Part shown: piece by piece, positions 27,290 through 29,145 of the stretch
How the letters are laid out: each line of letters starts with the position of its first letter
How positions within the stretch are numbered: position 1 is the first letter of the stretch
NCBI RefSeq assembly: GCF_032062105.1
Contig: NW_026924391.1
Span: 62,001 to 126,000, forward strand
DNA: 64,000 nucleotides
Source of the DNA: Saccostrea cucullata
Taxonomy: Eukaryota
Reading direction: 5' to 3'
Translations under genes and position numbers: made by a program
Notes under the pieces: model-generated
What the model saw: the letters and a program-made list of their open reading frames with translations, nothing else
The model's database searches: none
What the model was told of the DNA's origin: nothing

Positions 27290-29145
27290 TCACATCTGAT
27301 TTACAATCTTGCTTGTTTCTGCTTCAAAAAGTTATAATCAAATTAAGGTAATAATAAAAAAAGCATGAAAATGGCTTGTAATACCTTTTAATATAAAGTA
27401 ATTCTATAATATGACGCAATTCAAAATTCAGCGTAACGGCATGTATCCTAGTTTTACGTAAGATACTTGTATGATATAAAGACACAACAAAATAAACTTA
27501 CCTTTCCCGTTTCCAGTACAAGCGTAGTCATGGAAGACATTATATTCCTCCTGTGTCAGGATTTCATCTGTAAGGGAGAAAATTTGCTAAAATATATCTG
27601 ACAATCAGATTTCAGAATTGGAGATTTTTTTCTTCAAAAGAATTAACCTCGTTTCAAGTTTCGAACATAAATTAAAGCAAATAATAGTATTCATTTGACA
27701 AGATATATAAGAACTATCTATATCATTCTCTGTTTTAAAAAAAGAGAGCTTCTGAAATAGTTAAGTGGTCTTTTTTCTGTCTTTAAAGGGTAAATCTTTA
27801 TATTAAGCTACACTCCAAGTTTCATTTTACATTAAGAAATTCATCTTAACGAGAGTGTTATCTTGATACATACGTAACGTTCGATTTTATTGAAGTGAAT
27901 TTATTCAATGTACAAACCATCATTCTGATCTAGTTTATCAAACAGTTCCTCCAATTGCACCAGCCCTGTGCTTTGTATCAGGATGGCAAAGTCCTCTTTG
28001 GTAACAGTATTGTCGCCATTTAGATCAAAATTGTTAAATTTGCAGATGTGTATGCGAGGAATTGCCTGTACATGTATAAACAGTTTCAACTAAAGAAAAT
28101 CATTTCTTTATCCCTGGCATGCATATTCAAAATATTGAAGGTAAATTGAGGATATTTTATGGAATTCCTCAAATGTTGGTATGGCCTAACAAATAATTTC
28201 TTAAAAACAGTTTGGTTTCACTTTTTTAATTGAATTTTGACCTCAGTTATCCCCCTTCCTGAATTTGACTGATTTCACTGCTTTTGATTGATTTTATTTT
28301 TGATGATTTTATTCTTGATTTCTTATCGTGATATTTTTCGTCTGAATCTTCCCTAAAATTTGAATAGGAAATAGTTACCGTAAAACATTTTTATAAATAT
28401 TAAACCTACGTTTTCTGTTGATCTCTTTCCCATTTTCGCGAAGAATTCCACAAGAACACGTGCGATATTTTCAAAGGTGATTTCTTCTTCAGGAACAGTA
28501 TCTGTATCTAACGTAAGGTCTCTAGCAAACCGCCTCAGTGTCTTAGACTCCGTATGGCCAGTTGTAAGGAGGCCAATCAGGAAAAGAACGCTGTTATAAC
28601 GGAACCTGAGCTAGGTTAAATAAAATAAAAACAAATTAAACACTAGTAGCTTGATTGATTTAGCATGGACAAGATGAGAAGTTTAAAATGAAAGAGTATA
28701 GGACAAAATTTGCAGCACTCTATCGGTACCGAAAAGTGGTGGCGTCTGAGTTATATGAGTGAAATGTTCGCGAGGGACGTCAAACAAAAGACAAGCAAGC
28801 AAACATACACTATAGCCAACAGTTTTACGGCTTAATGGTTGGGAATAAAGAAAATTTCAAAGATAACATTTATTTTGAAAGTGAAAGTCCCATCCCTTTG
28901 GTCCCGATTTTTTTGTTCTGTTTCATAAATGATGTGTGCTGAAATTGGTCGAAATGGATTGAACAGTTCTAAAGAAGCTGAAAATGTTTAATTGTTTATG
29001 CAAGTTAAACGATCATGGACAAAAACAAAAAGCAATGTGTCACCTGAAGGATCCAGGTGACCTAAAAAAATACCAAAATAGTGAAAAATTATTTTTACCA
29101 TAATCAAACTGAGCACAGTAAAGTGGAAAAACAAAAAATTACCAT
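27290..29145 (-). CDS. Secreted prepropeptide (family 1, copy D): anionic, predicted C-amidated amphipathic peptide plus two-EF-hand pro-domain
   Basis: Exons ATG 29145-29143, 28610-28410, 28065-27918, 27567-27502 and 27321-27290. Protein: MLRFRYNSVLFLIGLLTTGHTES|KTLRRFAR|DLTLDTDTVPEEEITFENIARVLVEFFAKM-GKR-STENAIPRIHICKFNNFDLNGDNTVTKEDFAILIQSTGLVQLEELFDKLDQNDDEILTQEEYNVFHDYACTGNGKAETSKIVNQM*. TATAAAAA at 29207-29214 (-). Confidence 0.88.
28697..28805 (+). mobile_element. SINE 3' fragment in intron 1 of copy D
   Basis: Matches the reverse complement of ~14065-14140 (gtggtggcgtct..atatgagtgaaa..tcgcgagggacgtcaaacaa), with a caag/caaa tail. Confidence 0.5.

Follow-up and report, generated by a model that had tools for sequence, protein, structure and literature searches.

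Copy D, a gene on the minus strand of an oyster peptide cluster, belongs to a family of predicted secreted precursors whose sampled members otherwise carry cationic cargos, expected on release to be strongly positive and probably antimicrobial, and its status as an outlier within this sampled family holds: negative cargo charge was found only in copy D and its twin (−2). The copy is a variant of a known precursor type and the feature itself is real. Its second exon (28410..28610, minus strand; 201 nt with AG/GT borders) is part of an intact five-exon gene within the window, by which we mean the whole stretch of 64,000 nucleotides of Saccostrea cucullata DNA analyzed here. The reading that we favor, tentatively and with somewhat less than even confidence, is that copy D releases an amidated 38-mer (net charge about −2) which would serve as a secreted defence peptide by means of its amphipathic C-terminal helix and not of cationic charge. 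What is new here is the observation that the acidity of the EF-hand pro-domain tracks the charge of the cargo.

The EF-hand exon of copy D (P0005) is a 100% match to the RefSeq protein XP_062604572.1 of S. cucullata, and the gene model is an exact copy of RefSeq isoforms X1 and X2. Searches with tblastn, hmmsearch and nhmmer localized three family copies in the window, B (minus strand), C (plus strand) and D (minus strand); a copy A was not identified within it by these tools. The features referred to below are:

17919..19969, minus strand: paralogue B, cargo net +13.
22067..24532, plus strand: paralogue C (RefSeq XP_062604571.1), cargo net +8.
27290..27321, minus strand: copy D, coding part of exon 5 and stop; acceptor 27321 or 27318, yielding RefSeq isoforms X1 and X2.
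27502..27567, minus strand: copy D exon 4, completing EF-hand 2 and carrying the second of the invariant Cys residues.
27918..28065, minus strand: copy D exon 3, with EF-hand 1 and most of EF-hand 2; Pfam EF-hand_6 above the cut-off; splice joints in RNA contigs.
27991-28026, minus strand: EF loop 1 of copy D, within exon 3; Asp at position 12.
28422..28430, minus strand: G-K-R, predicted to serve both for convertase cleavage and as amide donor; retained in the twin P0006.
28431..28481, minus strand: neutral amphipathic C-terminal helix (17 aa), with homology to the corresponding parts of B and C.
28482..28520, minus strand: acidic linker of 13 aa with six Asp/Glu; a low-confidence coil in the model.
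28521..28544, minus strand: short basic arm (8 aa, +4) with the minimal R-x-x-R site RFAR at its end.
28545..28610, minus strand: predicted signal peptide, residues 2–23, ending in T-E-S, by homology to the family signal region.
29143..29145, minus strand: coding part of copy D exon 1, the ATG alone followed by a GT donor, a layout shared with B and C.
29208-29214: TATA-like box of copy D, about 65 nt upstream of the ATG.

RNA evidence was drawn from three runs of a single study (X1, X2 and X3), as contigs only, aligned to positions 17500-29400; run X1 was found by means of the copy D exon, and X2 and X3 were added as runs of the same study. Introns 2 and 3 of copy D are skipped in contigs of runs X1 and X3 (CT..AC ends) and intron 4 in run X1, which disposes of the doubt attached to the original prediction that the copy might not be transcribed. 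In all three runs the acidic stretch is covered by gap-free contigs of about 92% identity (12/145, 14/153 and 15/184 differing letters), indicating that the frame of copy D is preserved in a diverged allele or relative; run X1 additionally contains an identical piece. The twin, P0006, is 96% identical and lies next to a twin of C on a different contig, which is probably the second haplotype. One residue is changed in its cargo, and the G-K-R, the helix pattern and the frame are all retained. That copy D might be a chance ORF or a pseudogene was also considered and is ruled out by the spliced RNA contigs and the dN/dS of the EF exon.

All members of the family share a signal region, a linear Cys-free cargo, a (G)KR site and an EF-hand pair with two Cys residues, and the K-R-S motif is invariant in 24/24 aligned rows. 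A search of cluster representatives with the EF exon gave 84 matches, mostly generic EF-hand proteins, and a profile search gave 44; full-length homologues came from Magallana gigas, M. angulata, Crassostrea virginica, Ostrea edulis, S. echinata and S. cucullata. Three of these, XP_011417947.1 (M. gigas), XP_022313113 (C. virginica) and XP_048762985.2 (O. edulis), have the same architecture with invariant KRS, Cys and EF residues and are annotated merely as uncharacterised or EF-hand proteins; they differ from copy D in their cargos, which carry +13 to +14 and start with W-R-R. Two metagenome scans revealed no relatives, and Foldseek and PDB sequence searches returned generic EF-hand proteins only. 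A description of the family was not found in the literature searched, in which most subscription journals are not covered, and supplements of oyster omics studies may list its genes; the accessible portions of PMC8398477, PMC13070813, PMC7653742, PMC11359391, PMC3039611 and PMC6425005 contain nothing on it.

Charge was scored for the 25 rows with a parsable cargo, after fragments and single-exon ORFs had been dropped (P0093 lacks its N-terminus). Copy D has the homologous signal region, the KRS and the two-Cys EF-hand pair of its relatives, and departs from them in its cargo charge, which is +4 to +14 in the other 23 rows, those outside copy D and its twin. In the EF-domain tree it falls in a starred clade (96/96) together with B, C and W-R-R-R-R-F proteins of other genera, where its sister is B (82/90, unstarred) and its own branch is long (0.42). 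Within this clade the cargos from Saccostrea grade in charge through +13, +9, +8, +4 and −2, copy D marking the end of the series. Other members from the genus (P0047, P0102, P0103, P0019 and P0093) have long cargos of 68–78 aa that lack the Gly for amidation, which points to wide turnover of cargos in Saccostrea.

Exon 2 encodes a signal-like region followed by RRFAR, a run of acidic residues, a hydrophobic stretch and G-K-R, and both the homology to the cationic paralogues and the acidic shift are supported. The last 18 cargo residues align with those of copy B as had been proposed (6/18 identical, shuffle p = 5e-5), and with those of C at 4/18 (p = 1e-3); the basic arm showed no significant resemblance to the N-terminus in Magallana (p = 0.08). 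The helix has a modest hydrophobic moment of 0.48 (nominal shuffle p = 0.04), and in the AlphaFold model residues 47–63 are helical with a pLDDT of about 64–76. Searches of Pfam and Atlas gave no match to the cargo, Atlas returning EF-hand clusters only, below 0.9; prediction of a complex between the cargo and its own EF domain gave a score of 0.19 (mark 0.34), which counts neither for nor against such binding.

How acidic the released peptide is depends on where the precursor is cut. Signal peptidase and KR cleavage alone give a cargo of 38 aa and net −2; the net charge of about −6 in the original prediction is that of the side chains of the 30-mer following RFAR and does not apply if that site is left uncut. 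The calculated monoisotopic masses of the amidated forms are about 4512.4 for the 38-mer and about 3483.8 for the 30-mer. The furin consensus is R-x-[K/R]-R. The RRFAR motif, described as furin-like, is present and fits R-x-x-R, copy D carrying a single such minimal site, but fails the full consensus. R-x-x-R occurs in 24/25 cargos and R-x-[K/R]-R in 13/25, with none in D; because general use of R-x-x-R would fragment the family's cationic cargos, we judge cleavage at RFAR to be the less likely outcome, possible but not needed. The terminal G-K-R is there as predicted, though it is not peculiar to copy D: Gly precedes KR in 17/25 cargos, so that an amidation signal is the family norm, to which B and C are exceptions, and from this motif the end of the copy D peptide is likely to be amidated.

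A possible source of the acidity emerged when exon 2 was checked for frameshifts. The best ungapped match between D and C is out of frame (10/11 nt, p = 0.013–0.032 under three nulls) and pairs the Arg-Ser repeat of C exon 2 (22218-22433) with the Asp-Thr run of D, whereas the same check against B gave nothing significant (p = 0.7–0.9). Such an origin would account for only two of the eight acidic residues of copy D. A local frameshift may thus have produced part of the acidic run, and we regard this as a lead.

The EF domain of copy D is under purifying selection: dN/dS for the EF exons is 0.13–0.14 against B and C (0.10–0.14 among the three copies), rough values given a dS of D against B/C near saturation (about 1.6–1.8). 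Asp at position 12 of EF loop 1 was confirmed and is confined to D and its twin (2/25 rows); Asp12 in an EF loop is a minority variant that lowers selectivity for Ca over Mg. The EF core is least acidic in D (−11/−10 vs. −13 to −21), and the net charge of the whole proprotein is −10 for D and −11 for both B and C, within −7 to −14 across the nine rows of the clade. Compared with B and C, the cargo charge of D is apart by 10–15 units and that of the pro-domain by 11–16, the total being unchanged. Independent contrasts of cargo against pro-domain charge (17 rows, 16 contrasts) gave r = −0.50 to −0.71 (p = 0.04 to 0.0015), and with D left out r lay between −0.24 and −0.52 (p = 0.04–0.36); the covariation is weak without copy D, which therefore carries much of the signal. 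That pro-domain acidity tracks cargo charge supports a putative masking role for the EF-hand and makes a separate antidote peptide less needed, as each of B and C is likely to have its charge masked by its own pro-domain. Copy D fits an old functional duplicate in which the pro-domain lost acidity as the cargo lost basicity.

In the processing that we envisage, the signal peptide would be cleaved after T-E-S, a convertase would cut at KR, a carboxypeptidase would trim the product and PAM would amidate it, so that copy D would be processed like its siblings and act at the body surface. The acidic EF-hand pro-domain would mask cationic cargos in the secretory pathway; in copy D, whose pro-domain became less acidic, the acidic linker of the cargo would have assumed this masking role. 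The neutral helix is predicted to contact a membrane or surface, and bridging of the acidic linker by Ca/Mg of seawater possibly aids this contact. Precedent for such processing is given by the accessible text on myticalins (PMC12294457) and mytimycins (PMC8004829). Windows from the signal and cargo of the M. gigas homologue occur in a supplement of sequences derived in silico from proteins that MS had identified in mucus (PMC11432763), which, from the portion available, implies that the parent protein was among those detected there. The six peptides that this study assayed include no match to the family (Table 2, compared by eye), and activity data for family members were not found in the literature searched. 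A bolder form of the proposal, which we consider doubtful, is that oysters possess an undescribed family of antimicrobial peptides, helical and amphipathic, each caged by an EF-hand pro-domain of matching charge. In one Saccostrea copy part of the basic arm would have turned acidic, perhaps with some contribution from a local frameshift in the Arg-Ser repeat, giving an amidated anionic peptide that kills in seawater salt or tunes its cationic siblings.

Among other roles (an anionic antimicrobial peptide or a signalling peptide), the original prediction had suggested the D peptide as a synergist or antidote partner of the cationic peptides; paired with those of B and C, it would quench self-toxicity or prevent their aggregation and so act in synergy. 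The shared cluster and the homologous helix are consistent with this idea, as is the presence of B and D contigs in all three RNA runs (C exon 2 in two of the three), and the accessible part of a study on temporins (PMC10049141) gives a precedent for synergy among the helical peptides of one animal. Tandem duplication accounts for the clustering, however, and the uncut D peptide is just −2. The antidote idea is further weakened by the acidic EF-hand pro-domains of B and C, which outweigh their own cargos, and by Magallana, Crassostrea and Ostrea, in which, under limited sampling, no non-positive cargo was found (+6 to +14). We regard the partnership as unlikely; both a partner role and a strong charge reversal are conjectural.

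Alternatively, the cargo might be a relaxed, drifting remnant in a gene retained for its secreted Ca/Mg-binding EF-hand domain, an explanation of low probability in our judgment. Selection on the EF exons, the changes specific to the EF domain of D (Asp12, lower acidity, long branch), the possible frameshift and a dN/dS of 0.65 against B over the last 23 codons would agree with drift, but the same codons give 0.26 against C, the twin keeps its G-K-R, helix pattern and frame, and the frame is intact in the 92%-identical RNA contigs. A hormone-like or chemotactic role on a receptor for the amidated 30-mer appears more improbable still. Its R-x-x-R and G-K-R flanks are prohormone-like, and a snail gene encoding neuropeptides and an EF-hand is reported in the title of a cited paper; yet the precursor holds a single cargo that has no Pfam or Atlas match, and neither the repeated peptides nor the family-wide conserved, amidated C-terminal motif of a neuropeptide precursor was found. 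In the accessible portion of a paper on oyster ganglia, EF-hand is mentioned in the references only.

Maximin H5, an acidic peptide from a family of largely cationic ones, and dermcidin DCD-1L are net-negative amphipathic antimicrobial peptides. The resemblance of copy D to them is one of type and lies in its amphipathic helix; the net charge of its peptide would be −2 uncut and −6 only with the RFAR cut. In defensins, the charge of an acidic propiece tracks that of the cationic mature peptide; in the oyster family the pro-region is instead C-terminal and a folded Ca-binding domain. Comparable architectures are those of Mytilus, as far as the accessible text of two papers goes. Mytimycin precursors are likewise secreted, with a mature peptide, a dibasic site and an anionic C-terminal EF-hand extension whose role was called unknown in 2021 (PMC8004829); their mature peptide is Cys-rich, in contrast to the Cys-free cargo of copy D, and the likeness in EF domains is one of architecture. 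Myticalins (PMC12294457) share with the oyster family a linear Cys-free cargo, a KR site, an anionic C-terminal extension and a multigene organization, and with copy D the G-K-R amidation signal, which is frequent among them. Myticalin cargos, in most cases rich in Pro/Arg, are consistently cationic and the extension is of low complexity, whereas the oyster cargo is of helical type and is followed by a folded EF-hand pair; copy D, moreover, lacks a cationic charge.

Within the cluster, about 2.1 kb separates B from C, which are oriented head-to-head; their TATA and first-exon regions are similar, and the two could be regulated jointly. C and D are arranged tail-to-tail. The cluster is flanked by two genes. 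One (11857-15144, plus strand) has several exons and a signal-like start, and the four of its ORFs that were tested gave no Pfam match; the other (33720-34355, minus strand) has a long exon of Pro/Ile/Lys repeats that closes with G-K-R-S ahead of a Cys-containing region, and further exons near 34563-34607, 33046-33145 and 32635-32820. Pfam matches to the latter are weak and far below the cut-off, the last exons of the two genes resemble each other (34% over 32 aa, E = 4e-5), and the latter is possibly another cargo-type precursor. Tandem arrays with a unit of about 166 bp at 4300-5400 and 30510-31030 are probably a mobile or satellite repeat, and a large gene at 54991-63188 (plus strand), in which long exons rich in Ser accompany a weak IRS-type PTB match (E = 0.006), seems to encode an ordinary adaptor protein.

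According to the accessible text of a 2025 paper (PMC12294457), no amphipathic α-helical antimicrobial peptide had been described in bivalves, a gap for which the oyster family supplies candidates. Copy D set against B and C offers a natural experiment on the role of the EF-hand extension. Should the D peptide prove active, a cationic family would have given rise to a defence peptide that does not depend on charge, and this in a group of animals that is farmed.
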